Shown: positions 1 to 64,000 of the stretch, one piece after another | How positions within the stretch are numbered: position 1 is the first letter of the stretch | Layout of the letters: each line of letters starts with the position of its first letter | Assembly (NCBI GenBank): GCA_946631995.1 | Contig: CAMPAQ010000017.1 | Span: 16,306 to 80,305, forward strand | Length of the DNA stretch: 64,000 bases | Origin: an uncultured Bacteroidales bacterium | GTDB lineage: Bacteria; Bacteroidota; Bacteroidia; Bacteroidales; UBA3663 | Direction: 5' to 3' | Position numbers and translations under genes: made by a program | Notes under the pieces: generated by a model | What the model was told of the DNA's origin: nothing | Seen by the model: the letters and a program-made list of their open reading frames with translations, nothing else | Database searches by the model: none

Positions 1-478
1 TCGTCATATAATAATGTGTCAAGGCGATGGCAACGGCATCGGTAGCATCGTTCTTGGCATTCATATCGGCGTCGGTCAGGCGCAGAGTGTTGCGAACCAT
101 CATCGCGACCTGCTCTTTCGAGGCTGAGCCATTGCCCACAATCTGGATTTTCACCTTGGCGGGCGGATATTCAAAAATGGGAATGTCACGCTCAACAGCA
201 GCTGCCATAGCCACCCCCTGAGCGCGACAAAGCTTAATCATCGACGCCGGATTGATGCCCACGAAGGGCGACTCGATTGCCAGTTCGTCGGGATGATATT
301 GTTCGATGAGGCCCAATACCCGCTCATAGATGCGCTTGAGACGCAGATAGTGGCTCTCCATCTTCTGCAACTGCAGCACACCCATCACGACAAGCGTGGG
401 CTTGCGGTCGCACACCTGCAACACGCCATAGCCCATCACGTTCGTGCCCGGATCAATTCCCAGAATTATTTTCTCCAT
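1..478 (-). CDS. ruvC: Holliday junction resolvase RuvC (partial; C-terminal end lies beyond window start)
   Basis: Minus-strand translation from ATG (complement of 476-478) gives MEKIILGIDPGTNVMGYGVLQV...AIESPFVG...DATDAVAIALTHYY, the classic RuvC fold signature. Not in the ORF track because it is truncated by the window edge. Confidence 0.85.
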   Translation of the reverse strand, partial: MEKIILGIDPGTNVMGYGVLQVCDRKPTLVVMGVLQLQKMESHYLRLKRIYERVLGLIEQYHPDELAIESPFVGINPASMIKLCRAQGVAMAAAVERDIPIFEYPPAKVKIQIVGNGSASKEQVAMMVRNTLRLTDADMNAKNDATDAVAIALTHYYMT

Positions 479-1208
479 CGGGCGACAACTGGTCAAATGC
501 GGCCGACGACATTTCCACCTCGCGCAGGTAGTTCAGATGCTCCTGAATGAGCTGGCTGTTCTTCACGTAGTCGCTGAACGGCGCAATTATCTCTTCAAGC
601 TCGGCCGACGATTGTGCCTGAACCGACATCACATTGGCGCAATACACGCCCAACAGGTTATCATCGTTGGCATGATAGATGGAATCCACGTAGCGATTGA
701 CAACACCGCTGTATTTGCTGTAAACGACCATGATTTCGTTCTGGTCGAGCGTCTTGCCGCCATTCTGCTCCTGCAAGTTCTGCAACTCGTCATAAAGCTG
801 GTATCCGATGGTATCGACATAGCTCATCATGGCCACAATCTGGTCGTTAACGGCCGTGCCCTTCACCACCGTCGGCTCGCCGAGCACGGCTGTCAGCTCG
901 CCTGGTTCGACGACGAACATTCCCTGTCCATACTCGCCGATGATGTAGGCGAAATACGGTTCCTGGTCTTTGTCGATAACGCCGTTGAAGGTAAATTTTT
1001 CGTCGATGATTTGTGCCGAATCAATCGGGTTTCCCTTCAAGTCAGCCAGATAGACATAGCCGACAATCGGGCCGCGCGTGATTACGGAATCACCGACCTG
1101 AAAACTCTCGGGTACATCGAAACTACCCTCGATGGTGTAGGTCAACGGTTTTTCTGAACATGCGGCCAATGCCAATGCAGCAGCTGCTGCGGAGATGATT
1201 TTCTTCAT
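453..1208 (-). CDS. hypothetical lipoprotein (DUF4827-like)
   Basis: ORF 453..1313 trimmed to internal Met giving MKKIISAAAAALALAAC (signal peptide plus lipobox Cys). No recognisable catalytic motif. Overlaps ruvC start by ~26 nt. Confidence 0.6.
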   Translation of the reverse strand: MKKIISAAAAALALAACSEKPLTYTIEGSFDVPESFQVGDSVITRGPIVGYVYLADLKGNPIDSAQIIDEKFTFNGVIDKDQEPYFAYIIGEYGQGMFVVEPGELTAVLGEPTVVKGTAVNDQIVAMMSYVDTIGYQLYDELQNLQEQNGGKTLDQNEIMVVYSKYSGVVNRYVDSIYHANDDNLLGVYCANVMSVQAQSSAELEEIIAPFSDYVKNSQLIQEHLNYLREVEMSSAAFDQLSPDGENNSGN

Positions 1209-1828
1209 TGTATTTTCAATTTTTGTATTGCAGTGAAAAGTCGCTGGACGGGAAGTCCCATCACATTGAAATAACTGCCCTCCAGACGAGTGCAGCCGAC
1301 ATAGCCGATCCATTCCTGAATGCCGTATGCCCCGGCCTTGTCGAACGGCTTGTAAAAATCCACGTAGTAGGCGATTTGTTCGTCGGTAAGCGTGGCGAAA
1401 GTCACATCAGTGCGGCACACGAAGCTCGTCTCATCGACCACGCTCTTCAAACATACGCCCGTATAGACCTGATGCGTACGGCCACTCAGCTTGTGCAGCA
1501 TCCTCATGGCATCCTCACGGTCGCGAGGCTTGCCCATCTCCTCGCCATCGCACCACACAATGGTATCGGCCGTCACAAGCACCTCGCCCTTGGCCAACAC
1601 CAGATCATAGGCCGACATTTTCAGTCGCGCTATGTGCAACGGGATATCGCCGCCCTCCAGCCCGGCGGGATGCGTCTCGTCGATGTCCTTCAGCCGCACC
1701 ACCTCCATCGGGATGTCCAATCCGGCCAGAAGCTCTTTTCGACGCGGACTATTGGAGGCCAAAAGTAACTTGGTTATGCCCGACACGACTGCCGGCTTCG
1801 ACGACGTTTCTATAATGTCTGTACTCAT
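1205..1828 (-). CDS. maf: Maf-like nucleoside triphosphate pyrophosphatase (septum formation protein Maf)
   Basis: 207-aa ORF with LLLASNSPRRKELL and AGAYGIQE motifs typical of the Maf/YhdE family. Confidence 0.85.
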   Translation of the reverse strand: MSTDIIETSSKPAVVSGITKLLLASNSPRRKELLAGLDIPMEVVRLKDIDETHPAGLEGGDIPLHIARLKMSAYDLVLAKGEVLVTADTIVWCDGEEMGKPRDREDAMRMLHKLSGRTHQVYTGVCLKSVVDETSFVCRTDVTFATLTDEQIAYYVDFYKPFDKAGAYGIQEWIGYVGCTRLEGSYFNVMGLPVQRLFTAIQKLKIQ

Positions 1829-1858
1829 CGCTTCCTCATTTTTAAATATGCAGACACA

Positions 1859-2377
1859 TCACCATCCAAATGCGGTTTTGTCCGACATCCATTTGCCATG
1901 AGCCTTAAGCACCTGTTCAATGACATCGCGGCCAGCACCCCGTCCGCCGGGGCACGAACTCACGTAGCACGAAATTGCACGAATCTCCGGACACGCATCG
2001 CTCGGACAACACGGCAAACCTACCATCTGCATCACCTCATAGTCCGGAATGTCATCGCCCATATAGAGGATTTCGTCCCGCGTCAGCCCGGTCTTCTGCA
2101 TCAAATCGGCCAAATCGACCGTCTTTGTGTGCGAACCGAGGTAGATATGCTTCACTCCGAGGTATTCAAACCGTTTCTGCACGATGTCACTCTTGCCGCC
2201 GGAGATGATGCCGACCACAAGCCCCATCTTGACGGCCAACTGTATGGCATAGCCGTCCTTCACATTGAGCGTGCGCAAAGGCTGTCCTTCGCCGTCCATG
2301 GGAATAGTGTTGTCGCTCAACACCCCATCGACATCGAAGACCAGCCCTCGAATTTTTGTTAAATCGTAATTTATCAT
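1859..2377 (-). CDS. kdsC: 3-deoxy-D-manno-octulosonate 8-phosphate phosphatase, HAD superfamily
   Basis: 172 aa, HAD motif I ([12 protein letters not shown]), small KdsC-like size, YMGDD motif. Confidence 0.8.
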
Positions 2378-2462
2378 AAGAAAAATTTGTGCGCAAATTT
2401 ACACACATTTTGCAAAAGACGCAAATATTACCATGTAAATCATTTTCTTTTTAGACGTTATC

Positions 2463-2516
2463 GGTCGCTGCCATTCCTCGGCCGTGCAAGCACTTTCAAG
2501 GCGAATGGCAGCGACC
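2463..2516. other. long perfect inverted repeat (13-bp arms, 28-nt spacer) in the kdsC-ilvE spacer
   Basis: GGTCGCTGCCATT (2463-2475) ... AATGGCAGCGACC (2504-2516). The spacer contains the small palindrome GTGCAAGCAC. Confidence 0.6.
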
Positions 2517-2535
2517 TGACCCGTAAGAAAACGAA

Positions 2536-2568
2536 AAAAGCCTACCCTCGCGAGCAGGCTTTCACTAT
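2536..2568 (-). terminator. rho-independent terminator of ilvE
   Basis: On the minus strand: hairpin AAGCCT...CTCGCGAG...AGGCTT followed by TTTTTTCGTTTT. Confidence 0.55.
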
Positions 2569-2584
2569 GATGAAATACGAAAAC

Positions 2585-3607
2585 TTAATCGATGATGGTT
2601 ACCCAACCGTGCGTATCCTCAATGTCGCCATACTGGATGCCGCGCAAAGTCTCGTAGAACTTCGTGCAGACAGGGCCTGGCTGCGTCGATGGAAGGATAT
2701 TGTAAACCTTGTTCTCGTCCAAGTCGTCGATGCGGCAGATTGGCGAGATGACGGCTGCCGTGCCGCACATTGCTGCCTCGTCGAGGAATTCAAGTTCTTC
2801 AACAGGCATCGGACGGCACTCTACCTTATAGCCCAAATCCTTGGCAACCTGCTGGATTGACATGTTGGTGATCGACGGCAAAATCGATTCGGATGCCGGA
2901 GTGACGTAGCTGTTGCCCTTGATGCCGAAGAAGTTGGCAGGACCGCATTCGTCGATGAAACGCTTGCTGCGCGCATCGAGATAGATGACTGCGCTATAGC
3001 CCTTCTCGTGTGCCAAAACGCCGCTGGTCAACGATGCAGCATAGTTGCCGCCGACTTTTACGCGACCTGTACCCAACGGAGCGGCACGGTCGTAGCCACG
3101 CATGATGCAGCAAGGTGTTGCCTTGAAGCCGTCCTTGAAATATGGGCCTACTGGCATTACGAAAACGATGAACTCATACTCCTTTGCCGGATTGACGCCG
3201 ACCTGTGGACCTGTACCGAAGAGCACCGGGCGGATATACATCGAACAGCCAGTCTCGTAAGGTGGCACAAGATGCTCGTTGAGTTTTACAACCTTCTTGA
3301 TGGCCTGCTCGAACAAGCCGTCCGGAAGCGGCTGCATCAAAATGGTGCGGCAAGTGTCCTGCAAACGGGCTGCATTCTTGTCCATACGGAACACGCGGAT
3401 CTTTCCGTCCTTGCCACGGAAGGCCTTCAAGCCTTCAAAACCGGCCTGACCGTAGTGCAAAACGGTAGCGGCCATGTGCATCGTTACCTCTTCACTCTCG
3501 CAAACGCGAAGTTCACCCCATGCACCATCCTTGTAGGTGCAACGTACATTGTAAGGAGCCTTGCTATAGCCGAAGCCCAACTTGCTCCAATCAATCTGTT
3601 CTGCCAT
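2585..3607 (-). CDS. ilvE: branched-chain amino acid aminotransferase
   Basis: 340 aa; fold-type IV PLP aminotransferase pattern (YIRPVLFGTGP, GGNYAASL, CGTAAV). Confidence 0.85.
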   Translation of the reverse strand: MAEQIDWSKLGFGYSKAPYNVRCTYKDGAWGELRVCESEEVTMHMAATVLHYGQAGFEGLKAFRGKDGKIRVFRMDKNAARLQDTCRTILMQPLPDGLFEQAIKKVVKLNEHLVPPYETGCSMYIRPVLFGTGPQVGVNPAKEYEFIVFVMPVGPYFKDGFKATPCCIMRGYDRAAPLGTGRVKVGGNYAASLTSGVLAHEKGYSAVIYLDARSKRFIDECGPANFFGIKGNSYVTPASESILPSITNMSIQQVAKDLGYKVECRPMPVEELEFLDEAAMCGTAAVISPICRIDDLDENKVYNILPSTQPGPVCTKFYETLRGIQYGDIEDTHGWVTIID

Positions 3608-3932
3608 AATCTTATTACGTTATTATGTGTTGTTCAACTTTTCATCGGCCGACAGAAACAATCCATTCAAAATCGATGCGCACGGACCACCTCATCGACC
3701 GACAACTTTTCGGACTTGCATTCCATCGCCCTAAAAAAATCGACGGCAAATTTAACCAAATAATCCTTTGGTTGCTCAATTCTTCCACGTTTTTTCGCGA
3801 ATCTATCATTTTTGCCAATTTCTACACAAAAATCGCTCTGCCACGAACAAACACATAGACGAACGCTGCACTCATTTTTTTGCAAAATGTCCAGTTTCAA
3901 CAACTTTTTATTCCTTATTTTCTTAAAATGCA

Positions 3933-3940
3933 TATCTTTG
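3933..3940 (+). promoter_or_regulatory. Bacteroidetes sigma-A -7 box (TATCTTTG) upstream of structured element copy 1 / OmpA-family gene
   Basis: Exact match to the TAnnTTTG consensus, about 100 nt upstream of the element. Confidence 0.45.
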
Positions 3941-4018
3941 CAACCGATTTATTCATCAATCAAAACCAAATCGCCTATGAAGAAATAAAAAATTGTTGAA
4001 TTAAAAAACATATAATAA

Positions 4019-4195
4019 TATAGCATCCACTTGAATTTTGTCTCCTGAAAATTCGCCAAAATCTAACGGGACAACCTAAAAGTAAAAGCTCGGATGCTCA
4101 CGCTACGGCGTGGGCTTTTACTCGTATAGGTTGTTAGGTGTTTGGCGATACCTCAGGAGACAATGACGGATAAAATGCCCACGTTTTTGTATTTT
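4019..4195 (+). ncRNA. conserved structured RNA element, copy 1, in the 5' leader of the OmpA-family gene
   Basis: Nested stems: GTCTCCTGA (4040-4048) pairs with TCAGGAGAC (4153-4161); TTCGCCAAA pairs with TTTGGCGA; ACAACCTA pairs with TAGGTTGT; GTAAAAGC pairs with GCTTTTAC. The core GGATGCTCACGCT...GGCGTGGGC is identical in copy 2. Flanked by the conserved boxes ATAGCATCC (5') and CCACGTTTTT (3'). Confidence 0.5.
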
Positions 4196-4252
4196 CATCC
4201 GCCTTTAACCAGAAAAACAAATTACATCGCCAAACACTTAACAACCAAAACA

Positions 4253-5434
4253 ATGAAATTCAAAAACTTAATTCTGACAATGGCCGCGGTCATCACAAGC
4301 CTGAATGCAACGCTGGCCAATACGTCGAACAACGACAATGAAGAACTGCAAGCCTTCTCTTGGGCAGAACTGCAGGCAGGAGCGCAAATAACTCCGACAA
4401 ACGCAAGCAACGGCAAACTCTTCACTCCGGTATGCGCCATTTCCATCGGCCGATTCTTCTACCCTCAAATCGGAGGACGCATACACATCTCCGGACTAAA
4501 GGCCAAAGGCGGATTTGATCCTCTCGGCCAATATTACAAGTGGAACTTCCTGACATCGGACATTGACTTAATGGTCAACGTAACAGGCATCGTCAACGGC
4601 CGCAACGACAACATTCTGAACCTCATCGCCATCGCAGGCCTTGGCTTGACTGCATCATGGAACAACGACGAACTTCTCGAACTTGACAAGAATTACAAGA
4701 TACTTGGTAACAGCATGATGTGGAAAGACAACCACAAAGGGCGCAACCTTCGGCTCGGCATACGGCTCGAAACTGACCACACTCGGACATTCGGAGCTTC
4801 AGTAGAATTCACGGCCAACAACACCGACGACCGCTTCAACTCCAAATATGCGAATTCAAGCGACTGGATGCTGACCGGAATGTTGGGCGTGAGCTACCGC
4901 TTCGGCCGCAAATTCCGCAAGACAAACGGCGAAGCCACGGCCGACGGCACCGACCTCATCGAACGCATAGAACAAACGACACCCGAAGAACCGACCGCAT
5001 CAGTCGTCGAAGAAACGCCTTCGGCCGAAAAAGAGGTCGAAAAACAGCCAACGACGCGCACCATCGAACGGAGAATCAAAGTCACCTTGCACGAAGAGCA
5101 TTTCTATGCATACCGCGAGGTGGACAACGCAAGCGACGATGCTCAGATGCGCCGCATTGCCGACTTCCTGACCAAACACCCGGAAGCAACAATTTCTGTG
5201 ACTGGCTACGCCGACAAAGAGACAGGTACGGCTGCGGCCAATGCCCGATTCGCACGACAACGTGCCGAAATCTTCAAACGAAAACTGGTTGACGGATTCA
5301 ATGCAGACGGAAACCGCATCACAGTCGTTTCAAAGGGTGACACCGTCCAGCCATTTCCACAAAACGATCGCAACCGATGCGTAATCGTCGAAGGCAAGGC
5401 AGAGGAAACAATCATCGAAACCATCACAGAATAA
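4253..5434 (+). CDS. OmpA-family outer membrane protein (N-terminal beta-barrel region plus C-terminal OmpA-like peptidoglycan-binding domain)
   Basis: ORF 4142..5434 trimmed to MKFKNLILTMAAVITSLNATLA signal peptide. C-terminal ISVTGYADKETGTAAANARFARQRAEIFKRKLVDGF matches the OmpA_C-like domain. Confidence 0.75.
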   Translation: MKFKNLILTMAAVITSLNATLANTSNNDNEELQAFSWAELQAGAQITPTNASNGKLFTPVCAISIGRFFYPQIGGRIHISGLKAKGGFDPLGQYYKWNFLTSDIDLMVNVTGIVNGRNDNILNLIAIAGLGLTASWNNDELLELDKNYKILGNSMMWKDNHKGRNLRLGIRLETDHTRTFGASVEFTANNTDDRFNSKYANSSDWMLTGMLGVSYRFGRKFRKTNGEATADGTDLIERIEQTTPEEPTASVVEETPSAEKEVEKQPTTRTIERRIKVTLHEEHFYAYREVDNASDDAQMRRIADFLTKHPEATISVTGYADKETGTAAANARFARQRAEIFKRKLVDGFNADGNRITVVSKGDTVQPFPQNDRNRCVIVEGKAEETIIETITE

Positions 5435-5730
5435 AAAATCTTCTTTCCATAACGAGGAGAAATGTGTCCGACATTGAAACATATTCCTCCTTTTTCATTG
5501 GCTATAGACGACTTCTGAAAACCGCAAACAAGGACATCCGAAGCCAAAAAAGCACACTGGACAATAGACAAAAACGGTTGCAGAACAGCGCGAGGAGCAA
5601 AAAATAGCAGCAAAATTTTGCAGATTGGCAAAAATTGAATACCTTCGCGCCGCTTTTTAGTTTAAGCCAGTGCGATGGTGTATTGCCTTGCAAAAAGCAA
5701 TTAGAGTAACACAATTAACAAACTAAACAA

Positions 5731-6294
5731 ATGAAAGAGTATTCACTCGCTGGCACCAAGCGTGCCGAAAATGGCAAGAAGGCTGCCAAGCAGCTTCGCG
5801 CTCAGGGTCTCATTCCATGCAACCTCATCACCAAGGAGGGCGCACAGTCATTCACCGTCAAGGCTGCTGACATCCGCAACCTCATCTACACCTCACAGGT
5901 TTTCGCTGTGAAGCTGAACATCGAGGGCGCCGAGTGTCTGGCCATTGTCAAGGAGGCTCAGTTCGCTCCAGTCAACGAAGAGATCCTTCACCTGGATTTC
6001 CAGAAGTTCGAGGCCAATGAGGCTATCTCGGTTGCCATCCCAGTTAAGCTGGAGGGCTTCGCCGAGGGTGTCAAGGCCGGTGGTAAGCTGGTTAAGCAGG
6101 TTCGTAGCCTGACCGTCAAGGGTCGCTACACTGACATCCCAGAGCGTCTCATCGTCGATGTAACCTCAATCGAGTTGGGCAAGACTCTCAACGTCGCTTC
6201 TCTGAAGTATGACAACCTCGAGATCCTGACCGCTCCTTCGGTAATCGTCGCTGCTGTCAAGGCTACCCGCGCTTCTCGTCAGAACAACGCCTGA
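5731..6294 (+). CDS. rplY: 50S ribosomal protein L25 / general stress protein Ctc
   Basis: 187 aa MKEYSLAGTKRAENGKKAAKQLRAQGLIPCNL; L25/Ctc family, with the conserved rplY-pth-hslR gene order. Confidence 0.85.
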   Translation: MKEYSLAGTKRAENGKKAAKQLRAQGLIPCNLITKEGAQSFTVKAADIRNLIYTSQVFAVKLNIEGAECLAIVKEAQFAPVNEEILHLDFQKFEANEAISVAIPVKLEGFAEGVKAGGKLVKQVRSLTVKGRYTDIPERLIVDVTSIELGKTLNVASLKYDNLEILTAPSVIVAAVKATRASRQNNA

Positions 6295-6343
6295 TGCCTT
6301 TTCACATCGGCCAACACCCGATGAAAGCAAAAGAAAAAAAACG

Positions 6344-6408: not shown

Positions 6409-7260
6409 ATGAAAAGAGAGTTCCGTCTCGCGGCATTGGCCGCAATGATTGCCATCACCGGCTGCACAACGGGCCAGAAGGAAGAGCCATTGGCCAACGA
6501 CCCGAACACAATCACATTGGCCGACAACCGAACAACCGTCACGTGGATCAAGGACAACCAGGGCGACAAACTCATGCCCCGCGAGCTCTTTCCCGAGGCT
6601 TCGGATTCGCTCGTGCAGGCGTTGGGTGTGGCCGATGGTGTGCCTGCCTCGATGAGTGCCTACCTGATGCATTGTGATGGCCAATGGGTACTGTTCGACA
6701 CAGGACTGGGGGCCGACAAGGGCGGACAGCTGCTGAACGCACTGCAGGCAGTAGGGCTGACGCCGGACAGCATCGGCTATATCTACCTCACGCACTTCCA
6801 CGGCGACCACATCGGCGGAATGATGCAGGACGGCCAAGCGCTCTTCACTCGCGCCGAGGTCTTTGCCTGCTGCCACGAATATATGGCATGGATGATGGAA
6901 ATGCCTCTGGAGAAGACGGAGCTGCAACGGAAAGTGATGGAGGCCTACCGCGACCGCACGCACCTGTTCGAGTGGGGCGACTCGCTTCCCAACGGGATAT
7001 TGGCCATAGATGCCCCCGGACATACGCCCGGCCACACGGTCTTCCGCAAGGAGAACCTGCTCATCGTGGGGGACCTGATGCACGGCTTTGACCTGCAGCT
7101 CAACCACCGCTATATCAGCTGCAACTATGACATGGACAAGGAGCAGGCCGCCCAGTCACGCAACCACATCATCAGCATCGCCCACAACGAGCATCTGACC
7201 ATCTGCGGTATGCACCTGCCGGCACCAGCATTCTTCGAAGTCAACCCGGAGACGAAATAG
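6409..7260 (+). CDS. MBL-fold metallo-hydrolase (lipoprotein)
   Basis: Signal peptide plus Cys (AMIAITGC), THFHGDHIGG zinc-binding motif, downstream DAPGHTPGH. Confidence 0.75.
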   Translation: MKREFRLAALAAMIAITGCTTGQKEEPLANDPNTITLADNRTTVTWIKDNQGDKLMPRELFPEASDSLVQALGVADGVPASMSAYLMHCDGQWVLFDTGLGADKGGQLLNALQAVGLTPDSIGYIYLTHFHGDHIGGMMQDGQALFTRAEVFACCHEYMAWMMEMPLEKTELQRKVMEAYRDRTHLFEWGDSLPNGILAIDAPGHTPGHTVFRKENLLIVGDLMHGFDLQLNHRYISCNYDMDKEQAAQSRNHIISIAHNEHLTICGMHLPAPAFFEVNPETK

Positions 7261-7294: not shown

Positions 7295-7858
7295 ATGAAA
7301 TTTCTCATTGTCGGATTGGGAAACATCGGCCAAGAATATTGGGGCACACGCCACAATATCGGTTTCCGCGTAGTAAATGCTCTGGCCGATGCCCACGACG
7401 CCAAGTTTGAAGAAAACCGCTATGGCGCCACTTGCGAGTTCCGCGTCAAGAACCAGCAGCTGCTCCTGCTCAAACCGAACACCTACATGAACCTGTCGGG
7501 GTCGGCCGTGCGCTACTGGATGCAGGAGGAGAAGATCGACATCGACCATGTCCTGGTCATCTGCGACGACATCGCGCTGCCATTCGGCACTTTGCGTATG
7601 CGTGCCAAGGGTTCGGCCGGTGGCCATAACGGATTGAAGGACATTGCTGCCAAGTGCGGCGGCGAGGGATTTGCTCGTCTGCGTTTCGGCGTTGGTGGCG
7701 ACTTCCCCAAGGGCGCACAGTGCGACTGGGTTTTGGGACACTTTCCACAGGAAGAAGAGGACAAGATGCCCGAACGACTGGAAGTGACCACAAAGTTTAT
7801 CGAAGCCTTCTGTCTGGAGGGCTGTTCCAACGCAATGAACAAGTACAATGGCAAGTGA
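7295..7858 (+). CDS. pth: peptidyl-tRNA hydrolase
   Basis: [24 protein letters not shown] ... GHNGLKD canonical Pth motifs. Confidence 0.9.
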
Positions 7859-8324
7859 AGTTCGTATTGACAAGTGGCTGTGGGCCGTGCGCATCTTCAA
7901 GACGCGCTCGATTGCGGCCGATGCCATCAAGATGGGCCGTGTCACGATAGGCGGACAGAAAGTCAAGGCGTCGCGCAACGTGAAGATTGGCGAAGTCATC
8001 GACGTGAAGAAGCCGCCCATCACCTATTCCTTTAAAGTATTGGCATTGGCCGAAAACAGAATGGGTGCCAAGATGGTGCCCGGATTTATGGAAAATGTGA
8101 CCCGTCAGGAACAGCTCGACCTGCTACAGATGAGCCGTATCTCGGGTTTCATCGACCGTGCAAAAGGTTTGGGTCGCCCGACGAAGAAGGACCGCCGCGA
8201 CATGGACGACTTCACCACGCCGGAATATGTCGATGAATTCGACTTCTCGCTTGAAGATCTGGATGACCCGGATGTATGGGCCGAGGTGACGGAGGGACTC
8301 TCCAACAAAGATTCGGAACTTTAA
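7848..8324 (+). CDS. hslR: ribosome-associated heat-shock protein Hsp15 (S4 RNA-binding domain)
   Basis: [36 protein letters not shown]4 domain; overlaps pth by 11 nt. Confidence 0.8.
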
Positions 8325-8462: not shown

Positions 8463-9950
8463 ATGAATAAGCAACCCTCTCAAAAAGAGCTAATTTGCCA
8501 TCTTAATCTACCAATTTTCAACATCATCAGCGAAGAAGCCGATGATTTAGGTCGAGAATGTTACGTGGTTGGCGGATTCGTCAGGGACATTTTTCTTGAA
8601 CGTCCGTCGAAAGACATTGACTGTGTGACAGTTGGCAGCGGCATCGAATTGGCCGAACACGTAGCAAAACGATTGGGGCGCGGCGCACATCTGAGCGTAT
8701 TCCGCAACTTCGGGACTGCGCAAGTGAAATTCAAAGGTACCGAAGTGGAATTCGTGGGAGCGCGCAAGGAGAGCTACAGCCACGACAGCCGCAAGCCCGT
8801 GGTCGAAGACGGCACGCTGGAGGATGACCAGAACCGTCGCGACCTGACTATCAACGACATGGCCATCTGTCTGAACAAGGCACGCTTCGGCGAGCTGGTC
8901 GATCCGTTTCATGGTATGGACGATTTGGAAGCCGGATTGATCCGCACGCCGCTCAATCCCGACATAACATTCAGCGACGACCCGTTGCGAATGCTTCGCG
9001 CCATTCGGTTCGCATGTCGCTTCAAATTCAAGATTGTACCTGAAACCTTCGAAGCTATCGCCCGCAACCGCGAACGAATCAAAATCATCTCCGGTGAACG
9101 CATCATCGACGAACTGAACAAAATCATGATGTGCGAACAGCCCTCGACGGGCTGGCTGCTGTTGCAACGATGCGGCCTGCTGCAGATCATTTTCCCCGAG
9201 CTACAAGCCCTCAGCGGCATCGAGACGCGCGAAGGCCGTGGCCACAAGGACAACTTCATGCACACGCTGACGGTGTTGGACAACGTCTGCCGTGCGCAAC
9301 AGGAAAGAAAGTCATCGACCAAGAATGAGCCATCGGACAAAAACGAAAAAACGCTCGACACGACGCTGTGGCTGCGTTGGGCGGCCATCATGCACGACCT
9401 GGGCAAGGCAAAGGCAAAAGCTTGGGACGATAAGATCGGCTGGACGTTCCACAACCACGACTATCTCGGCTCTCGTATGGTGCCCAGCATTTTCCGTCGC
9501 CTAAAATTGCCGATGGGCGCAGAAATGAAATTCGTTGAAAAACTGGTTGCCCTGCACATGCGGCCCATCAATCTGGCCGATGAAGGAATCACCGACTCGG
9601 CAATACGCCGTGTGCTTTTCGAGGCTGGCGACGACATTGACGACCTGATGACGCTGTGCGAGGCCGACATCACGTCGAAGATTCCGGAAAAGGTGCGCCG
9701 CTTCCTCGACAACTTCAAGGTTGTGCGTCAAAAAATGGTCGAAATCGAAGAAAAAGACCGCATCCGAAACTGGCAGCCACCAGTTGACGGACTGGAAATC
9801 ATGCAACGCTACAACCTCAGCCCTTGCCGCGAGGTCGGTCTGCTGAAAGATTCGCTGAAGGATGCAATCCTTGACGGAATCTGTGCCAACGATCGCGACG
9901 AAGCCATCGCATTTTTGGACAACAAGGCAAAAGAACTCGGAATCCTATGA
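8463..9950 (+). CDS. tRNA nucleotidyltransferase / poly(A) polymerase family protein with HD domain (CCA-adding-enzyme-like)
   Basis: GGFVRD...D.D nucleotidyltransferase head motif, RDLTIN, and a C-terminal HD region (HDLGK...H..H...D). Confidence 0.8.
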   Translation: MNKQPSQKELICHLNLPIFNIISEEADDLGRECYVVGGFVRDIFLERPSKDIDCVTVGSGIELAEHVAKRLGRGAHLSVFRNFGTAQVKFKGTEVEFVGARKESYSHDSRKPVVEDGTLEDDQNRRDLTINDMAICLNKARFGELVDPFHGMDDLEAGLIRTPLNPDITFSDDPLRMLRAIRFACRFKFKIVPETFEAIARNRERIKIISGERIIDELNKIMMCEQPSTGWLLLQRCGLLQIIFPELQALSGIETREGRGHKDNFMHTLTVLDNVCRAQQERKSSTKNEPSDKNEKTLDTTLWLRWAAIMHDLGKAKAKAWDDKIGWTFHNHDYLGSRMVPSIFRRLKLPMGAEMKFVEKLVALHMRPINLADEGITDSAIRRVLFEAGDDIDDLMTLCEADITSKIPEKVRRFLDNFKVVRQKMVEIEEKDRIRNWQPPVDGLEIMQRYNLSPCREVGLLKDSLKDAILDGICANDRDEAIAFLDNKAKELGIL

Positions 9951-10321: not shown

Positions 10322-10384
10322 ACCGTTCTTGACCGATGCCATCTGCCAAGCATTTTCAATTGTCAACCATCATATTGTTTAGCC

Positions 10385-10978: not shown

Positions 10979-11087
10979 TAGCGTGCAGCACCATAAAGCA
11001 ATAAAAAAGATGTTTAAAACGTAATTGCGTCCGTCAGCTGGTCGATTACCTGACGGCTCTTTAGGACGTTGGCCAATGCCCATCGGA

Positions 11088-11127: not shown

Positions 11128-11154
11128 TATTGTTACTTTCTGTGGCCAATGCGG

Positions 11155-39445: not shown

Positions 39446-39457
39446 CCCGCATCGGCC

Positions 39458-58083: not shown

Positions 58084-58287
58084 AATGCTTACGGACTAAC
58101 CGCGTTTTTAACTTTCGGCTGCAAGTTTAACTTAAATAATTAACACTTGAAAGAAAAAAGTCGAAAAAAAGATTGGCTTTATACTTAATTAACAGCCGAC
58201 GTTTCGTTTGGCAATAAAATGTGAAAAGATTTTGGATTTCAAAGTTTTTATTTGGAGTTTTTCCGAAAGCTCAGTACCTTTGCCGCC

Positions 58288-60330
58288 ATGAAATCGAACC
58301 TTCGAACACTCATTATATATATAGCATTAACAATTGCAGGCGCGCTCTCGACCAACTTGAACGCGCAGCAGAAGCCCGAAGGGAATTCCCCACAAAAAGA
58401 TGACCGACAGGCCGCCGACACCGTCAAAGAAGATCCATGCATACCTCTGCAAGACGGCCGACGCTGCTGGACAATGAACGCGCTGACGGGTCTGACCTCG
58501 CCGGCTCGTCCCGACACGTCGTTCCTCAACCTGGGCAACCGGCAGAGCATGGAGAGCAAGGCATTGGCCCTCGTCCACACAGGCAACCTCTACAGCCCGC
58601 ACCTCGTGCAAGCTTACTTCGACCGACACATCGGCCACGACTTCATCTTCGCCAATGCCTACAACCTGTTCCGCATCGACCCGTCGCAACAGCTATACTA
58701 CAACAGCAAGCTGCCATGCACCGTGTTGAGCTACTCGAAGGAGGGCGGCGGACTTCAGACCAACGACCATCTGAAAATCAACTTCTTCGGCAATTTCAAC
58801 CGGCAAGTCGGCATCGGCACAAGCCTCGACTATGTGTATGCCCGCGGTGAATATGCCGAAAGCGCGACAAAGCCGCTCAAATGGAACAGCTACGCCTACT
58901 ACGAGGGTGACCAATACAAGTGCTACGCGAATTTTGCGCTCAGCAAGCTGGCCAATCAGGAAAACGGCGGCATCGCCGACCGAGGCTACGTGCTTTATCC
59001 GGACAACTACGCGGACAATTTCACCGACCCTAAGAACATGCCGACAAATCTGGTCGAGACTTGGAACGACACCGACCAGCGCCAGTTCCACTTCCAGCAC
59101 AGCTTCGACCTCGGCACATGGGAGGAGCGTTCGGAGCCGGGCGACACCGCCGTCTGGGACGAATTTGTGCCAGTCGCAACCATATTCCACAACATCGACT
59201 TCGAGCATCTGCACCACAATTTCCGCATGGACAATGGAGCTGACGCATCGGCCGACGGAATGTATGCCAACAACTTCTACGACTCCAGCCTGACGCACGA
59301 CTCGACATCCTACCGCAACTTCTCGACCTACGCCGGAATCCGTCTGAACGAAGGCTTCAGCCGCTTTTCGCAGTTCTCGCTCGGCGCATTCATCGGCTAT
59401 GAGCGGCAACACTACACCATGCTGCAAGACACTCTCGAGCTGAGCTACATCGGCCGCAACCACTATTCCAACAACGTCTGGGCCGGCGGTCAGCTGAGCC
59501 GGCATCTGTCGTCGCTCTTTACGGTCGATGCAACTGCGCGCACTGCCATTTCTGGCGACAAAGTAGGCGATATCGACATTGCAGGCAAGGTGCAGATGGT
59601 CATTCCGTTCGGTACGGCCGATGCGGAGAGTGGCACGCGGTCGGACAGCATTATCATCGAGGCCGATGCTGCATTGCGCAACAGCCGCGTCTCCTACCTG
59701 ATGGATCACTACTTCAGCAACCACTTCCGCTGGAGCAACGATTTCGACCGCGAACAACAAGTCCGCATTGAAGGCCGCCTCTCCTATCCGCGCACACGGT
59801 CAAGCGTACGCGTCGGCATCGAACACATCAACAATTTCCACTATTTCGGTGCCGATGGTCTGCCACACCAATTCGACAAACAAATGGACGTCTTCGCTCT
59901 GGAGATGCGTCAAGGACTTTGGGCCGGCAAGTGGCTCCAGTGGGACAATGCCGTGCTCATACAGACATCGACCGACGACGAGGTGCTTGCCTTGCCCAAC
60001 GTCAGCGTCGAGAGCGACCTTTCGTTCCATTTTCGCATTGCACGGACGCTGTCGGTTCAGGCCGGAGTTGCCGCATACTACAACACGGCATACTATGCGC
60101 CTAATTATCAGCCCGCTACGCAGCAATTCTGCACACAACACTCCATCAAGTGCGGCAACTATCCGCTACTGAACGGCTACGTGAATTGCAACTTGAAGCG
60201 CATCAAATTCTTCCTCACCGTACACAACATGCTGGAAGATGCCGTGACCAACGACATGTTCCTCATGCCCTACTATCCGCACCAGAGCCGCCGCATCGAA
60301 TATGGCATGATTCTGGATTTGCAGAATTGA
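58288..60330 (+). CDS. putative outer-membrane porin (Porin_10-like hypothetical OMP)
   Basis: ORF 58252..60330 trimmed to MKSNLRTLIIYIALTIAGALSTNLNAQQ. 680 aa, alternating-hydrophobic beta-strand pattern, C-terminal aromatic. Divergent from the kinase/regulator operon. Confidence 0.55.
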   Translation: MKSNLRTLIIYIALTIAGALSTNLNAQQKPEGNSPQKDDRQAADTVKEDPCIPLQDGRRCWTMNALTGLTSPARPDTSFLNLGNRQSMESKALALVHTGNLYSPHLVQAYFDRHIGHDFIFANAYNLFRIDPSQQLYYNSKLPCTVLSYSKEGGGLQTNDHLKINFFGNFNRQVGIGTSLDYVYARGEYAESATKPLKWNSYAYYEGDQYKCYANFALSKLANQENGGIADRGYVLYPDNYADNFTDPKNMPTNLVETWNDTDQRQFHFQHSFDLGTWEERSEPGDTAVWDEFVPVATIFHNIDFEHLHHNFRMDNGADASADGMYANNFYDSSLTHDSTSYRNFSTYAGIRLNEGFSRFSQFSLGAFIGYERQHYTMLQDTLELSYIGRNHYSNNVWAGGQLSRHLSSLFTVDATARTAISGDKVGDIDIAGKVQMVIPFGTADAESGTRSDSIIIEADAALRNSRVSYLMDHYFSNHFRWSNDFDREQQVRIEGRLSYPRTRSSVRVGIEHINNFHYFGADGLPHQFDKQMDVFALEMRQGLWAGKWLQWDNAVLIQTSTDDEVLALPNVSVESDLSFHFRIARTLSVQAGVAAYYNTAYYAPNYQPATQQFCTQHSIKCGNYPLLNGYVNCNLKRIKFFLTVHNMLEDAVTNDMFLMPYYPHQSRRIEYGMILDLQN

Positions 60331-62540: not shown

Positions 62541-62692
62541 AATGTCCGCTACTTTGCGACCAAAATTGTACTTTCTATTATTGCTGGCCTATTAGACTAA
62601 AATCTCACACAATAACAAAAAAAGGCTGATTCCTCGCAGGAGTCAGCCCTATGGTTTATTAATCGGGAATAAGTCTACATCCCATATTTTTT

Positions 62693-63259
62693 CTAAACAG
62701 TTGGCAATAATATTTCTCTTACCTCCATCAGAATGAAACCAAGTCGGTTCTCTCCTTTCCAGAAATGAGGAATGTTAATATCTGCCTCATCTTCACCTTT
62801 ACCTACGCCCCAGATCTTATCGTATGGACTTGCCTCGACTAAGGTTGAGTTGCCCGTAGATAGCAGAAAATCTTTCAGTTTCTTGTTTTGACTAAACTTG
62901 TGTAGATTACCATTATAGACGACCTCAATACTTTTTTCATTCCAGACTTCAGCGTCAAAATTGGGAACCAATCGCCCTAGTTTCTTAATGACTGAAGGAT
63001 CTGAAGATTCAAGAATTTTTGACCTAATCGCTTCGTCACCAAAAATCCTGGCCTTCTCTGCCATCATATACTGTTCGGCACAATTATATGTGATGCCGTC
63101 AACGACAAATGTCGATGAATACCACTGGCTAAGACATGCTTTTGTGATTTTACCTTTTTTTTCTTCATGTTTCCAAAAATAGACAAAATCGTCATAGAAG
63201 AATGAATCAACGGCAAGCATTAGTCCGCTACGAGTATATTTCAAGTCCTCCATCCTCAT
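62693..63259 (-). CDS. NADAR-domain protein (YbiA/DUF1768 family)
   Basis: ITYNCAEQYMMAEKARIFGD and WGVGKGED motifs of the NADAR fold. Lies in an AT-rich islet. Confidence 0.7.
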   Translation of the reverse strand: MRMEDLKYTRSGLMLAVDSFFYDDFVYFWKHEEKKGKITKACLSQWYSSTFVVDGITYNCAEQYMMAEKARIFGDEAIRSKILESSDPSVIKKLGRLVPNFDAEVWNEKSIEVVYNGNLHKFSQNKKLKDFLLSTGNSTLVEASPYDKIWGVGKGEDEADINIPHFWKGENRLGFILMEVREILLPTV

Positions 63260-63353
63260 ATGCTTCAGTTTATATATTGATTGATGTTAATGTTTCCAAC
63301 TTCACTTTAAATATTCGGGTCAAAGGAGCAGTTTTTCCTCCCCACGATAGAAT

Positions 63354-63683
63354 TTACATATACTTAACACGTTTTTTCCCATACTCAAAAATCAAATGAA
63401 CGTCATAAGGCATCCACTTCTCCAGCATAGCCTCGGCGAACATGACAAACCCTTTATTCTCGATAGGCACATCGGGGTCGGTCATATAGTTCTTTTTATC
63501 TGGATTGTTTTTAACATAGTTGCGGGCTTGGACCTCCCATTCACTGCTATCAAAATCTTTTAGATATTGAAACTCCAACTCCCAAAAAAGAGCGTCAGTC
63601 CAACCGTGTTCAAATGGGTTTTCGCTTTCGCCCTTATAATAAAGGCAGAACTCACGAAATTTATTATTACGAAAAAAATCCAT
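63354..63683 (-). CDS. hypothetical protein
   Basis: 109-aa ORF with low GC and no recognisable motif; immediately upstream of the NADAR gene on the same strand. Confidence 0.4.
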   Translation of the reverse strand: MDFFRNNKFREFCLYYKGESENPFEHGWTDALFWELEFQYLKDFDSSEWEVQARNYVKNNPDKKNYMTDPDVPIENKGFVMFAEAMLEKWMPYDVHLIFEYGKKRVKYM

Positions 63684-63882
63684 GATGTTAAAGGTTTGGG
63701 ATTATAGATCTGTGTATATTGACTTGTTTTCAACCTGTAGGCCGTGAACAATTGGCACAAATATACTTATTACGACAATCATTCACAAAAAAAGAGAAAT
63801 TATTTTAAAAATCGGGGTATAATTCCATTATTTTACAAAACTTACCACAAAAATAGAAATAAACCATAGTGTCTGTTCATAC

Positions 63883-63916
63883 AAAAAAAGAGGAGTCCTC
63901 TAAGTGAGAACTCCTC
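63883..63916 (-). terminator. terminator at the 3' end of the rRNA operon (downstream of 5S)
   Basis: On the minus strand: GAGGAGTTCTC-ACTTA-GAGGACTCCTC followed by TTTTTTTG. Confidence 0.7.
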
Positions 63917-63918
63917 TC

Positions 63919-64000
63919 GTAAGGTGGCCGCTTCCTACTCTCCCACGTTGGCAGTACCATCGGCGTTGCAAGGTTTAACTTCTCTGTTCGGAATGGTAAG
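63919..64000 (-). rRNA. rrf: 5S ribosomal RNA, 3' portion (gene continues beyond window end)
   Basis: Reverse complement reads ...CCATTCCGAACAGAGAAGTTAAACCTTGCAACGCCGATGGTACTGCCAACGTGGGAGAGTAGGAAGCGGCCACCTT, matching the conserved 5S helix IV/V region. Followed on the minus strand by a hairpin and a T-run. Confidence 0.85.

Follow-up and report, generated by a model that had tools for sequence, protein, structure and literature searches.

A non-palindromic octamer, CATYGGCC, is written into the DNA of one genus-level clade of uncultured Bacteroidales

What makes one octamer recur over and over in a stretch of chromosomal DNA from an uncultured Bacteroidales bacterium, in different reading frames and on both strands? 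The stretch, which we call the window, spans 64,000 bases (positions 16,306 to 80,305 of contig CAMPAQ010000017.1), and the octamer is CATYGGCC, the joint form of CATTGGCC (the T form) and CATCGGCC (the C form). An earlier note, made by eye from the letters of the window, had drawn attention to its abundance and compared it to the highly iterated palindrome HIP1 of cyanobacteria and to uptake signal sequences. We show here that a clade-specific force acting at the DNA level writes CATYGGCC into any frame, strand or spacer, overrides weak protein constraint and keeps the copies. The phenomenon is DNA-level drive or selection of the HIP1 and uptake-sequence class.

Octamers were counted with both strands pooled (a word plus its complement) and compared with dinucleotide-preserving shuffles of the 64-kb window. 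CATTGGCC occurs 47 times, where the shuffles gave a mean of 3.0 and a maximum of 9, and CATCGGCC occurs 50 times (mean 3.2, maximum 8), so that CATYGGCC has 97 copies, a density of 1516 per Mb (1.5 per kb) and an observed-to-expected ratio of about 16. The two forms rank second and third by count among all octamers of the window, just below the overlapping GCATCGGC. Markov expectations at orders 1, 2, 3 and 4 (3.0, 5.7, 5.0 and 10.9 for CATTGGCC; 3.1, 6.9, 15.4 and 23.8 for CATCGGCC) make the T form the cleaner outlier, the C form riding in part on common sub-words; the maximal-order expectation was set aside as uninformative, because its sub-words are themselves dominated by the motif. The earlier note's estimate of about 43 T-form copies was therefore right about the excess and slightly low in number, its coordinates all fall within about 14 bases of true copies (6527 for 6515, 35325 for 35313, 51340 for 51326), and it had correctly described the one-base variant as similarly frequent and a 12-base palindrome as occurring twice. 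This palindrome, CATTGGCCAATG, lies at 10881-10892 and 25504-25515, and a mixed palindrome, CATCGGCCAATG, at 38337-38348. The copies are unevenly spread, from 0 per 2 kb (at 52-58 kb and 60-64 kb) up to 16 (at 22-24 kb), with 28 copies at 22-26 kb and 0 at 52-58 kb.

An octamer can become frequent simply by encoding a favoured peptide with favoured codons, and the placement of the copies relative to genes bears on this directly. Fifty genes, called from long open reading frames and a codon score, occupy 87% of the window, and according to Pfam most of them are ordinary chromosomal genes (L25, Pth, RuvA, CCA-adding enzyme, uronate catabolism, GlmS, SpeA, a two-component system, a porin). Called genes contain 86 of the 97 copies, 48 in the sense and 38 in the antisense direction relative to transcription, in at least five frame and strand classes (xCA-TTG-GCC, xCA-TCG-GCC, ATC-GGC-C, GCC-AAT-G, GCC-GAT-G, GGC-CAA-TG). 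The peptides named in the earlier note (P/A/T-L-A, G-Q-W and A-N-x) are correct, and the C form adds S-A, I-G and A-D. About 7 copies are truly intergenic, which is roughly 1 per kb and similar to the coding density; the two that the earlier note had placed between genes, at 11073 and 20715, are the copies at 11071 and 20714, outside called genes. All copies are listed below with their coordinates, strand and form, followed by the called gene and its strand, the direction of the word relative to that gene, the codon offset and the residues encoded.

1164-1171, minus, CATTGGCC; gene 453-1313(-), sense, offset 1, ALAA
3643-3650, plus, CATCGGCC; outside called genes
4444-4451, plus, CATCGGCC; gene 4142-5434(+), sense, offset 2, SIGR
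5236-5243, minus, CATTGGCC; gene 4142-5434(+), antisense, offset 2, AANA
6012-6019, minus, CATTGGCC; gene 5731-6294(+), antisense, offset 2, EANE
6305-6312, plus, CATCGGCC; outside called genes
6434-6441, plus, CATTGGCC; gene 6409-7260(+), sense, offset 1, ALAA
6488-6495, plus, CATTGGCC; gene 6409-7260(+), sense, offset 1, PLAN
6515-6522, plus, CATTGGCC; gene 6409-7260(+), sense, offset 1, TLAD
6630-6637, minus, CATCGGCC; gene 6409-7260(+), antisense, offset 2, VADG
6679-6686, minus, CATTGGCC; gene 6409-7260(+), antisense, offset 0, GQW
7324-7331, plus, CATCGGCC; gene 7295-7858(+), sense, offset 2, NIGQ
7384-7391, minus, CATCGGCC; gene 7295-7858(+), antisense, offset 2, LADA
7916-7923, minus, CATCGGCC; gene 7848-8324(+), antisense, offset 2, AADA
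8044-8051, plus, CATTGGCC; gene 7848-8324(+), sense, offset 1, ALAE
9575-9582, minus, CATCGGCC; gene 8463-9950(+), antisense, offset 2, LADE
10189-10196, minus, CATCGGCC; gene 9947-10321(+), antisense, offset 2, AADA
10689-10696, plus, CATCGGCC; gene 10385-10978(+), sense, offset 1, ASAN
10881-10888, plus, CATTGGCC, left half of CATTGGCCAATG; gene 10385-10978(+), sense, offset 1, PLAN
10885-10892, minus, CATTGGCC, right half of CATTGGCCAATG; gene 10385-10978(+), antisense, offset 2, LANA
11071-11078, minus, CATTGGCC; outside called genes
11144-11151, minus, CATTGGCC; outside called genes
11409-11416, minus, CATTGGCC; gene 11155-12216(-), sense, offset 2, AIGH
12682-12689, minus, CATTGGCC; gene 12403-13908(-), sense, offset 1, ALAA
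13846-13853, minus, CATTGGCC; gene 12403-13908(-), sense, offset 1, PLAK
16286-16293, plus, CATCGGCC; gene 15763-17181(+), sense, offset 1, PSAK
16547-16554, plus, CATTGGCC; gene 15763-17181(+), sense, offset 1, ALAG
19458-19465, plus, CATTGGCC; gene 19079-20530(+), sense, offset 1, ALAI
19629-19636, plus, CATTGGCC; gene 19079-20530(+), sense, offset 1, ALAA
19821-19828, plus, CATCGGCC; gene 19079-20530(+), sense, offset 1, ASAK
20714-20721, plus, CATCGGCC; outside called genes
21161-21168, plus, CATCGGCC; gene 20760-25577(+), sense, offset 2, SIGH
21406-21413, plus, CATTGGCC; gene 20760-25577(+), sense, offset 1, ALAK
21936-21943, minus, CATCGGCC; gene 20760-25577(+), antisense, offset 0, GRW
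22209-22216, minus, CATTGGCC; gene 20760-25577(+), antisense, offset 0, GQW
22301-22308, minus, CATCGGCC; gene 20760-25577(+), antisense, offset 2, LADA
22363-22370, plus, CATTGGCC; gene 20760-25577(+), sense, offset 1, TLAY
22511-22518, minus, CATCGGCC; gene 20760-25577(+), antisense, offset 2, TADD
22549-22556, plus, CATTGGCC; gene 20760-25577(+), sense, offset 1, PLAR
22580-22587, minus, CATCGGCC; gene 20760-25577(+), antisense, offset 2, SADD
22622-22629, minus, CATCGGCC; gene 20760-25577(+), antisense, offset 2, AADE
22670-22677, minus, CATCGGCC; gene 20760-25577(+), antisense, offset 2, MADG
22834-22841, plus, CATCGGCC; gene 20760-25577(+), sense, offset 1, ASAN
22879-22886, plus, CATTGGCC; gene 20760-25577(+), sense, offset 1, ALAT
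23210-23217, minus, CATTGGCC; gene 20760-25577(+), antisense, offset 2, EANV
23255-23262, minus, CATTGGCC; gene 20760-25577(+), antisense, offset 2, LAND
23485-23492, plus, CATCGGCC; gene 20760-25577(+), sense, offset 1, PSAD
23570-23577, minus, CATCGGCC; gene 20760-25577(+), antisense, offset 2, LADG
23724-23731, minus, CATTGGCC; gene 20760-25577(+), antisense, offset 0, GQW
23872-23879, plus, CATCGGCC; gene 20760-25577(+), sense, offset 1, ASAD
24307-24314, plus, CATCGGCC; gene 20760-25577(+), sense, offset 1, ASAT
24406-24413, plus, CATTGGCC; gene 20760-25577(+), sense, offset 1, ALAI
24637-24644, minus, CATCGGCC; gene 20760-25577(+), antisense, offset 1, GPML
24814-24821, plus, CATTGGCC; gene 20760-25577(+), sense, offset 1, TLAD
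24860-24867, minus, CATCGGCC; gene 20760-25577(+), antisense, offset 2, AADA
24899-24906, minus, CATTGGCC; gene 20760-25577(+), antisense, offset 2, LANA
25042-25049, plus, CATTGGCC; gene 20760-25577(+), sense, offset 1, PLAI
25113-25120, minus, CATTGGCC; gene 20760-25577(+), antisense, offset 0, GQC
25297-25304, plus, CATTGGCC; gene 20760-25577(+), sense, offset 1, ALAD
25504-25511, plus, CATTGGCC, left half of CATTGGCCAATG; gene 20760-25577(+), sense, offset 1, TLAN
25508-25515, minus, CATTGGCC, right half of CATTGGCCAATG; gene 20760-25577(+), antisense, offset 2, LANA
25731-25738, plus, CATCGGCC; gene 25661-27538(+), sense, offset 1, TSAT
26828-26835, minus, CATTGGCC; gene 25661-27538(+), antisense, offset 0, GQW
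28181-28188, plus, CATTGGCC; gene 28153-29511(+), sense, offset 1, ALAI
28209-28216, minus, CATCGGCC; gene 28153-29511(+), antisense, offset 2, LADV
28374-28381, plus, CATCGGCC; gene 28153-29511(+), sense, offset 2, FIGR
28503-28510, minus, CATTGGCC; gene 28153-29511(+), antisense, offset 2, AAND
28701-28708, minus, CATCGGCC; gene 28153-29511(+), antisense, offset 2, AADD
29402-29409, plus, CATCGGCC; gene 28153-29511(+), sense, offset 1, ASAK
29846-29853, plus, CATCGGCC; gene 29553-30311(+), sense, offset 2, AIGQ
31231-31238, plus, CATTGGCC; gene 30837-33836(+), sense, offset 1, PLAI
34519-34526, plus, CATCGGCC; gene 33940-34539(+), sense, offset 0, HRP
35313-35320, minus, CATTGGCC; gene 35220-36428(-), sense, offset 1, TLAV
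35759-35766, plus, CATCGGCC; gene 35220-36428(-), antisense, offset 2, SADV
36737-36744, minus, CATCGGCC; gene 36261-36824(+), antisense, offset 2, TADE
37585-37592, minus, CATTGGCC; gene 36872-38374(+), antisense, offset 2, AANA
38337-38344, plus, CATCGGCC, left half of CATCGGCCAATG; gene 36872-38374(+), sense, offset 1, ASAN
38341-38348, minus, CATTGGCC, right half of CATCGGCCAATG; gene 36872-38374(+), antisense, offset 2, SANA
39450-39457, plus, CATCGGCC; outside called genes, 5 bases past the stop of 38558-39445
41608-41615, minus, CATTGGCC; gene 41434-42948(-), sense, offset 1, SLAG
42480-42487, minus, CATCGGCC; gene 41434-42948(-), sense, offset 2, TIGH
42903-42910, plus, CATTGGCC; gene 41434-42948(-), antisense, offset 2, SANG
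43617-43624, minus, CATCGGCC; outside called genes
45672-45679, minus, CATCGGCC; gene 45638-46318(+), antisense, offset 1, WPMI
45685-45692, plus, CATTGGCC; gene 45638-46318(+), sense, offset 2, AIGQ
46251-46258, plus, CATTGGCC; gene 45638-46318(+), sense, offset 1, PLAN
46466-46473, minus, CATCGGCC; gene 46338-47591(+), antisense, offset 2, TADA
47015-47022, plus, CATCGGCC; gene 46338-47591(+), sense, offset 2, GIGP
48207-48214, plus, CATCGGCC; gene 47803-49407(-), antisense, offset 2, SADD
50626-50633, plus, CATCGGCC; gene 50313-51197(+), sense, offset 1, ASAG
51326-51333, plus, CATTGGCC; outside called genes, possibly within a short uncalled gene
58562-58569, plus, CATTGGCC; gene 58252-60330(+), sense, offset 1, ALAL
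58629-58636, plus, CATCGGCC; gene 58252-60330(+), sense, offset 2, HIGH
59246-59253, plus, CATCGGCC; gene 58252-60330(+), sense, offset 1, ASAD
59448-59455, plus, CATCGGCC; gene 58252-60330(+), sense, offset 2, YIGR
59616-59623, minus, CATCGGCC; gene 58252-60330(+), antisense, offset 2, TADA
59661-59668, minus, CATCGGCC; gene 58252-60330(+), antisense, offset 2, EADA

Many of these copies use minor codons (TTG, 24% of Leu; AAT, 28% of Asn; GAT, 28% of Asp; CAA, 24% of Gln). When synonymous codons were shuffled within genes, the check that the earlier note had named, CATTGGCC reached a mean of 4.5 and a maximum of 12 in 300 shuffles against 42 observed in coding sequence, and CATCGGCC a mean of 6.4 and a maximum of 14 against 44; at 7-10 fold, no other octamer is as enriched as these two under this null. 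A stricter dicodon shuffle, which preserves the protein, the first two bases of each codon and all dinucleotides, yielded 14.2 (maximum 25) and 13.3 (maximum 26), respectively. Furthermore, among the 182 peptide contexts of the window that could encode CATYGGCC without a change of protein, 86 (47%) are occupied, compared with 6% predicted by codon usage. Occupancy reaches 79% in a single gene of the window, the GH2/GH35 glycoside hydrolase fusion gene described below, and 77% and 82% in two related loci, L084 and L091, for which codon usage predicts 6-9%. As the synonymous-codon shuffle fails to reproduce the counts, the signal resides at the DNA level, and the preference for a DNA-level cause over codon-pair preference voiced in the earlier note is borne out by the several frames, the intergenic copies and the shuffle alike. 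CATYGGCC acts at the level of double-stranded DNA rather than protein or mRNA; it occupies any reading frame, strand or spacer able to accommodate it, and it overrides codon preference.

The view that there is no separate DNA-level feature, and that codon-pair, amino-acid or dipeptide bias or a dispersed repeat family accounts for the counts, is consequently scarcely credible. It can point to the codon-favoured sub-words ATC-GGC and GCC-GAT within CATCGGCC, for which the order-4 Markov expectation already stands at 24, and to ordinary loci, whose top octamers also have observed-to-expected ratios near 10 under low-order Markov models. Both codon-aware nulls nevertheless fail by a wide margin, the compatible contexts are 47-82% occupied where 6-9% is expected, copies lie in several frames, on both strands and between genes, and the flanks hold at most about 0.2 bit of information at more than 4 bases from the core, which a dispersed repeat would not predict. 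The same codon test correctly dismisses as codon-driven another word, CCTTGGCC, the top octamer in a Prevotella metagenome-assembled genome (MAG) locus (L028) and in a metagenome contig (L161): we had considered it as a sister dialect and rejected it, as codon shuffling explains it.

The anatomy of the word was derived from 244 copies pooled from the window and three related loci, the core being invariant by construction. A purine occupies position +9 in 92% and position +12 in 82% of the copies, A occupies +10 in 52% and G occupies -2 in 52%, so that the fuller form reads g-n-CATYGGCC-R-a, with a one-sided flank and a symmetric part limited to YGGCCR. Farther than 4 bases from the core, on both sides, the information drops to about 0.2 bit or less, so CATYGGCC does not belong to a longer repeat. 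The whole word is not palindromic either: two-sided CATYGGCCRATG was observed 3 times, compared with 7.5 expected if the sides were independent. The prefixes CGT (44 copies) and TGT (43 copies) in place of CAT are also raised, only in the species of the window; they differ from CAT by CpG transitions, as the C and T forms do from each other at Y. About 4.8 kb outside the start of the window, on the same scaffold (L347, 18380-18436), a hairpin resembling an intrinsic terminator precedes a T run, and directly after it (18419-18436) a perfect 18-base palindrome, GGCCGATGCGCATCGGCC, consists of two inverted word copies. It lies between a hypothetical gene and dnaG and is the only terminator-associated inverted pair seen.

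Within the window 51 copies are in plus and 46 in minus orientation (p = 0.68), while GC skew keeps one sign throughout, which suggests a single replichore. Strand and frame distribution, a check proposed in the earlier note, was followed in the window, where it revealed no strand polarity. An asymmetric octamer with a length similar to that of Chi invites comparison with polar recombination or translocase signals of the Chi or FtsK-orienting polar sequence (KOPS) type. The even orientation under one-sign skew, together with the 48 sense and 38 antisense copies, excludes a polar signal of this kind as well as a signal read in mRNA, and the density of 1.5-5.6 per kb is far above that of Chi and KOPS; we therefore regard this alternative as very improbable.

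To which organisms does the word belong? Loci around glmS from 80 other Bacteroidota species, taken among the matches listed, served as negative controls, and none showed an excess (the highest count, from a genome with a GC content of 62%, was 4 per 10 kb); the nearest of these species, among the matches listed, has 72% GlmS identity. Likewise among the matches listed, GlmS of the window is 61-64% identical to that of Prevotella or Segatella and 72% identical to that of uncultured Bacteroidales and Candidatus Minthousia, so the organism is not clearly Prevotella-like, as the earlier note had assumed, and the word is a property of one genus-level clade and not of Prevotellaceae at large. An 80.4-kb metagenome scaffold (ENA ERZ28612961, our L347) ends with the 64,000 bases of the window, which are identical in sequence to contigs of MAG GCA_002373755.1. 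The excess, far from vanishing beyond the window, continues on this scaffold (15 further copies in the adjoining 7.4 kb) and in four other loci from close relatives, which carry 2.8-5.6 copies per kb. A sister species (L084-86; GlmS identity 94%, nucleotide identity 84%, GC 54%) has 32 CATTGGCC and 17 CATCGGCC in 17.7 kb, including genes not common to the window. The 8-kb contig L091 (assembly GCA_016648415.1, GC 59.5%), which contains an ortholog of the GH2/GH35 gene, has 28 and 17, and L200, an unrelated 14-kb contig of housekeeping genes, has 27 and 26. In L084, L091 and L200 both words are top octamers against the codon shuffle (5-10 fold), at 2770-5600 copies per Mb, and the ratio of T to C forms varies by lineage (47:50 in the window, 32:17, 28:17 and 27:26 in L084, L091 and L200).

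L200 was recovered by a metagenome scan for three same-strand copies, which otherwise returned mostly tandem repeats and this one true clade contig; a mixed-orientation pattern was far more specific, with 14 matches among viral contigs compared with more than 120 for the same-strand pattern, and no phage-like contig among those scanned carried the clade signature. Under the same codon null, no enrichment was found in relatives at 88% and 85% GlmS identity (GC 45-47%) or in the GH-gene outgroup L092 (GC 50%), which places the boundary between GlmS identities of 88% or less, where the excess is absent, and 94% or more, where it is present. Across lineages word density rises with GC:

Relatives at 85-88% GlmS identity: GC 45-47%, 0.2-0.4 copies per kb
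This window: GC 52%, about 1 copy per kb
L084, the sister species: GC 54%, 2.8 copies per kb
L200 and L091: GC 57-60%, about 5.5 copies per kb

The word is thus specific to one genus-level clade of uncultured, probably rumen, Bacteroidales and arose within that clade. A relative at 85% GlmS identity (L088, GC 45%) has a faint C-form excess: CATCGGCC occurs 6 times in 21.6 kb, and the word fills 5 of the 24 compatible peptide contexts, where 6% is expected. This hint implies that the process may have begun weakly before the motif-rich clade split, and CATCGGCC, built from codon-favoured sub-words, may be the ancestral form. Density also changes within contigs: in L200, the first 9.7 kb hold 52 of the 53 copies, and the word is nearly missing from the recJ-recQ part. 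This part (9700-13000) has 1-2 copies in about 3.7 kb, an unusually strong A-over-T skew (+0.17 to +0.26) and a GC content similar to the rest; recent import and a chimeric assembly are two possible explanations.

How copies arise and persist can be followed in the hot spot of the window:

20760-25577, plus strand: GH2/GH35 fusion gene, motif hot spot, 30 copies, 6.2 per kb, GC 60%

Its product of 1605 residues combines an N-terminal glycoside hydrolase family 2 (GH2) module with a GH35 beta-galactosidase module, and its GC content compares with a window average of 52%. Coding sequences of the window without this gene still have 56 copies against 9 expected. Of the 30 copies, 29 are kept as the word in the L091 ortholog, 26 of them unchanged and 3 with the other pyrimidine at Y, an exchange that replaces Leu by Ser or Ser by Leu and leaves the word intact; among control octamers of matched composition from this gene, 63% are identical in L091 (Fisher p = 2.7e-5). 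None of the 30 is present in the outgroup L092, whose GH2/GH35 gene is 70% identical, and all 30 were therefore gained inside the clade. At residues covered by copies, identity to the outgroup is 56%, compared with 73% over the whole protein (P = 0.0005), with changes from outgroup to window such as LNEN to LADA, LSSD to LAND and KLG to ALA, and compatible peptide contexts number 38 in the window gene and 15 in the outgroup. In the glmS region the sister species retains 7 of the 9 copies present in the window, compared with 36% for controls (p = 0.013); its own copies there number 22, of which only 7 are found in the window, so the sister gained many more. Gains in the sister lineage include transversions and multi-base changes (GGGCGATG to GGCCGATG, GAGCGACG to GGCCAATG). 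CATYGGCC has pushed amino-acid changes at weakly constrained positions, and its copies are held at orthologous positions more tightly than comparable octamers.

The GH2/GH35 gene is 92.8% identical to its L091 ortholog, while the glmS region is 84% identical to that of the sister species (L085), and in L091 the gene has different neighbours (a GH43/esterase gene instead of an MFS transporter). If the L091 and L085 lineages are comparably distant, the gene looks like a segment common to this genome and a denser lineage, which is only suggestive, and it may have been exchanged between lineages of the clade.

What, then, maintains the word? Our leading reading, held tentatively and at somewhat less than even confidence, is that CATYGGCC is a protein-read tag through which clade DNA would be preferentially taken up, processed or recombined, and which would spread by molecular drive. 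The word would be the recognition site of a putative sequence-specific DNA-binding activity that reads double-stranded DNA in either orientation, possibly via methylation of the YGGCCR core, as for HIP1, and that favours clade DNA in exchange, acting on the uptake, processing or recombination of incoming DNA. Copies would spread by recombination-mediated molecular drive and then be kept by that drive or by selection; densities of about 1, 2.8 and 5.5 per kb and the differing T:C ratios would represent stages or dialects of one process, and a denser lineage would be the source from which the GH2/GH35 gene, with its high GC content and many copies, was imported. A mechanism of this kind is the one proposed for the uptake sequences of Neisseria and Pasteurellaceae and, more recently, for HIP1. 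We favour the tag considering (i) the asymmetry of the word, (ii) its dialect-like differences, (iii) its cost to proteins, (iv) its mosaic density and (v) the finding that methylated HIP1 raises transformation more than 100-fold (bioRxiv 10.1101/2024.09.10.611283). HIP1 sites are also conserved above controls (PMC5861425), and HIP1 abundance correlates with DNA-transfer genes (bioRxiv 10.64898/2026.06.24.733823).

Several observations weigh against a tag. A search by regular expressions and Pfam for methyltransferase, Vsr and competence genes in the window, L084, L091, L200 and L347, about 100 kb of clade DNA, found none, which counts weakly given the small part of a genome covered; specifically, regular expressions for m5C or amino-methyltransferase signatures had no match in the window, L084, L091 or L001, and Pfam scans of the window and L200 gave no methyltransferase. 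The cognate methyltransferase that the earlier note had suggested looking for thus did not appear in the stretch covered. The word has no intergenic excess of the kind seen for uptake sequences, and just the one inverted pair at a terminator. To our knowledge natural transformation with a sequence preference has not been reported in Bacteroidota, and our literature searches returned no case of it. Conservation at orthologous sites would equally be the outcome of a repair bias that restores sites, and import of the GH2/GH35 gene depends on the comparable distance assumed above.

Such a repair bias could generate the word as a by-product, with no function of its own, and this is a real but rather unlikely possibility. 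In Elhai's model, HIP1 accumulates neutrally by methylation-directed biased repair (PMC4390886); here, a clade-specific methyltransferase acting on YGGCCR or on the whole word (in the style of Type IIG or Type III enzymes), coupled to a methylation-directed or very-short-patch-like repair nuclease, would turn near-matches into matches and restore mutated copies, which would also explain the orthologous conservation. The YGGCCR core is a classic restriction-modification specificity (EaeI/CfrI), GGCC, which relatives avoid (observed/expected 0.76-0.81), is slightly favoured in the clade (1.05-1.16), and the variants tolerated in the window (C/T at position 4, A/G at position 2, C/T at position 1) can each be derived from CGTCGGCC by a CpG transition. 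The abundance of HIP1 in cyanobacteria is likewise associated with CGATCG methyltransferases (PMC4390886). Repair of this type is, however, difficult to reconcile with a word that is not palindromic and has no excess of two-sided copies, with the stretches of clade DNA covered, in which no methyltransferase or Vsr signature was seen, and with a missing Vsr-type footprint: the deamination products GGTC/GACC (observed/expected 1.01-1.06), GGCT/AGCC (0.86-0.99) and CATYGGTC are not depleted, and the one-off neighbours of the word are at or above expectation. CpG stands at 1.0-1.3 of expectation, so there is no general CpG decay, and T:G mismatch repair alone cannot make the transversion and multi-base gains between the sister lineages. 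Tag and biased repair are not exclusive if the tag is read through methylation.

Ordinary selection could instead maintain the word as a site for an abundant chromosomal protein with a role in nucleoid organisation, segregation or replication, unrelated to DNA exchange. Orthologous conservation above controls, strand independence and the presence of the word in coding and non-coding DNA alike would all fit, and Xu et al. 2018 proposed a chromosome-structuring role for HIP1 from the periodic spacing of the same kind of pattern (PMC5861425); the 64-kb window is too short to show periodicity at the 10-90 kb scale. We consider such a site improbable, since density varies about 5-fold between sister lineages and changes sharply within contigs (0 copies at 52-58 kb and 28 at 22-26 kb of the window; 52 of 53 in the first 9.7 kb of L200), a patchiness that would be odd for a structural signal needed along the whole chromosome.

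Among known systems, CATYGGCC resembles HIP1 (GCGATCGC) and the alternate highly iterated palindromes in being an octamer of comparable or higher density (1500-5600 per Mb, against 300-2700 per Mb for HIP1; PMC4390886), in occurring in all frames and between genes, in its lineage specificity with related variants in related genomes, in orthologous conservation above control motifs (Xu et al. 2018 for HIP1) and in a GC-rich core that resembles a restriction-modification site. It differs in being non-palindromic, with a one-sided flank and a degenerate Y, in belonging to a different phylum and there to a genus-level clade rather than to most of a phylum, in its enrichment (about 16 fold against dinucleotide and 7-10 fold against codon nulls, compared with 15-300 fold for HIP1) and in having no known cognate methyltransferase.

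The resemblance to the DNA uptake sequences (DUS) of Neisseria and the uptake signal sequences (USS) of Pasteurellaceae is of another kind. These are asymmetric words found in several frames, with a protein cost at weakly constrained positions, dialects and a sharp arrival within clades. CATYGGCC shares with them a short asymmetric form, a density of about 1 or more per kb in equal orientations, the several reading frames, the amino-acid changes at weakly constrained positions, the dialects of sister lineages and the sharp arrival within a clade. Unlike USS and DUS, it has no intergenic excess and a single terminator-associated inverted pair, its core comprises 8-9 bases rather than 9-12, and no competence system or DNA receptor is linked to it; we know of no sequence-specific uptake in Bacteroidota. 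The Escherichia coli Dcm/Vsr system also shifts oligonucleotide frequencies genome-wide through a repair bias at a methylated site. Its effect stays below about 2-fold on tetramers and pentamers, whereas CATYGGCC is an octamer raised 7-16 fold whose deamination products are not depleted and whose gains include transversions. The comparison with HIP1 and uptake sequences drawn in the earlier note is therefore apt in abundance, conservation and effect on proteins, and CATYGGCC fails one defining feature of each class, the palindromy of HIP and the intergenic or terminator excess of uptake sequences.

The window displays further signals apart from CATYGGCC. A second dispersed octamer, CGCGTAGC/GCTACGCG, occurs 16 times against 1.9 expected (maximum 6), and 15 times in coding sequence against 1.6 under codon shuffling (sites at 23626, 23928, 24644, 26753, 35526, 40596, 41586, 42562, 47961, 50123, 50315, 54378, 55161, 55517, 56714 and 58922); with 3 copies in L084 and 0 in L091 and L200, it may be species-specific. 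CTAG has 2 sites in 64 kb (observed/expected 0.03), GATC is at 0.34, and CTAC is the most over-represented tetranucleotide (1.77); relatives have the same tendencies in weaker form, and the pattern suggests restriction or repair pressures separate from the octamer. Gene 30837-33836 encodes a 999-residue surface protein; at 32363-33724 it contains about 15 tandem units of 69 bases, nearly identical to one another, that encode leucine-rich repeats of the BspA type (Pfam LRR_5). These ordinary repeats account for 12-mers repeated 11-14 times and are unrelated to the octamer.

Hyper-abundant words are known from few groups (HIP1 in cyanobacteria; USS and DUS in Pasteurellaceae and Neisseriaceae), and their origin is still debated. 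A full-text literature search found no report of such a word in Bacteroidota, in agreement with the earlier note, which was aware of none in Prevotella-like genomes, although coverage was incomplete and earlier work is possible; a search by motif strings returned only primer sequences. The same kind of signal has now been found in a gut or rumen clade of Bacteroidales. As this clade has close relatives without the word and sister lineages at different saturation, gains can be dated and polarised, and comparative genomics can be used to test drive against selection. The word also has a practical use as a strong signature by which contigs can be binned to the clade, and it flags motif-poor and motif-rich imported segments.

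A bolder and rather doubtful proposition is that CATYGGCC could be the first self-DNA sequence tag in Bacteroidota, with DNA that carries it, possibly methylated, being preferentially taken up or recombined and the word spreading by molecular drive. If so, the gradient of GC and density (no excess at 45-47%, about 1 per kb at 52%, 2.8 at 54% and 5.5 at 57-60%) would be such a system caught invading genomes, an early stage not previously observed for HIP1, USS or DUS. Were the word to mark DNA for uptake or recombination, this would mean sequence-biased gene exchange in a phylum where none is known, and it would suggest a way to improve gene transfer into these organisms.

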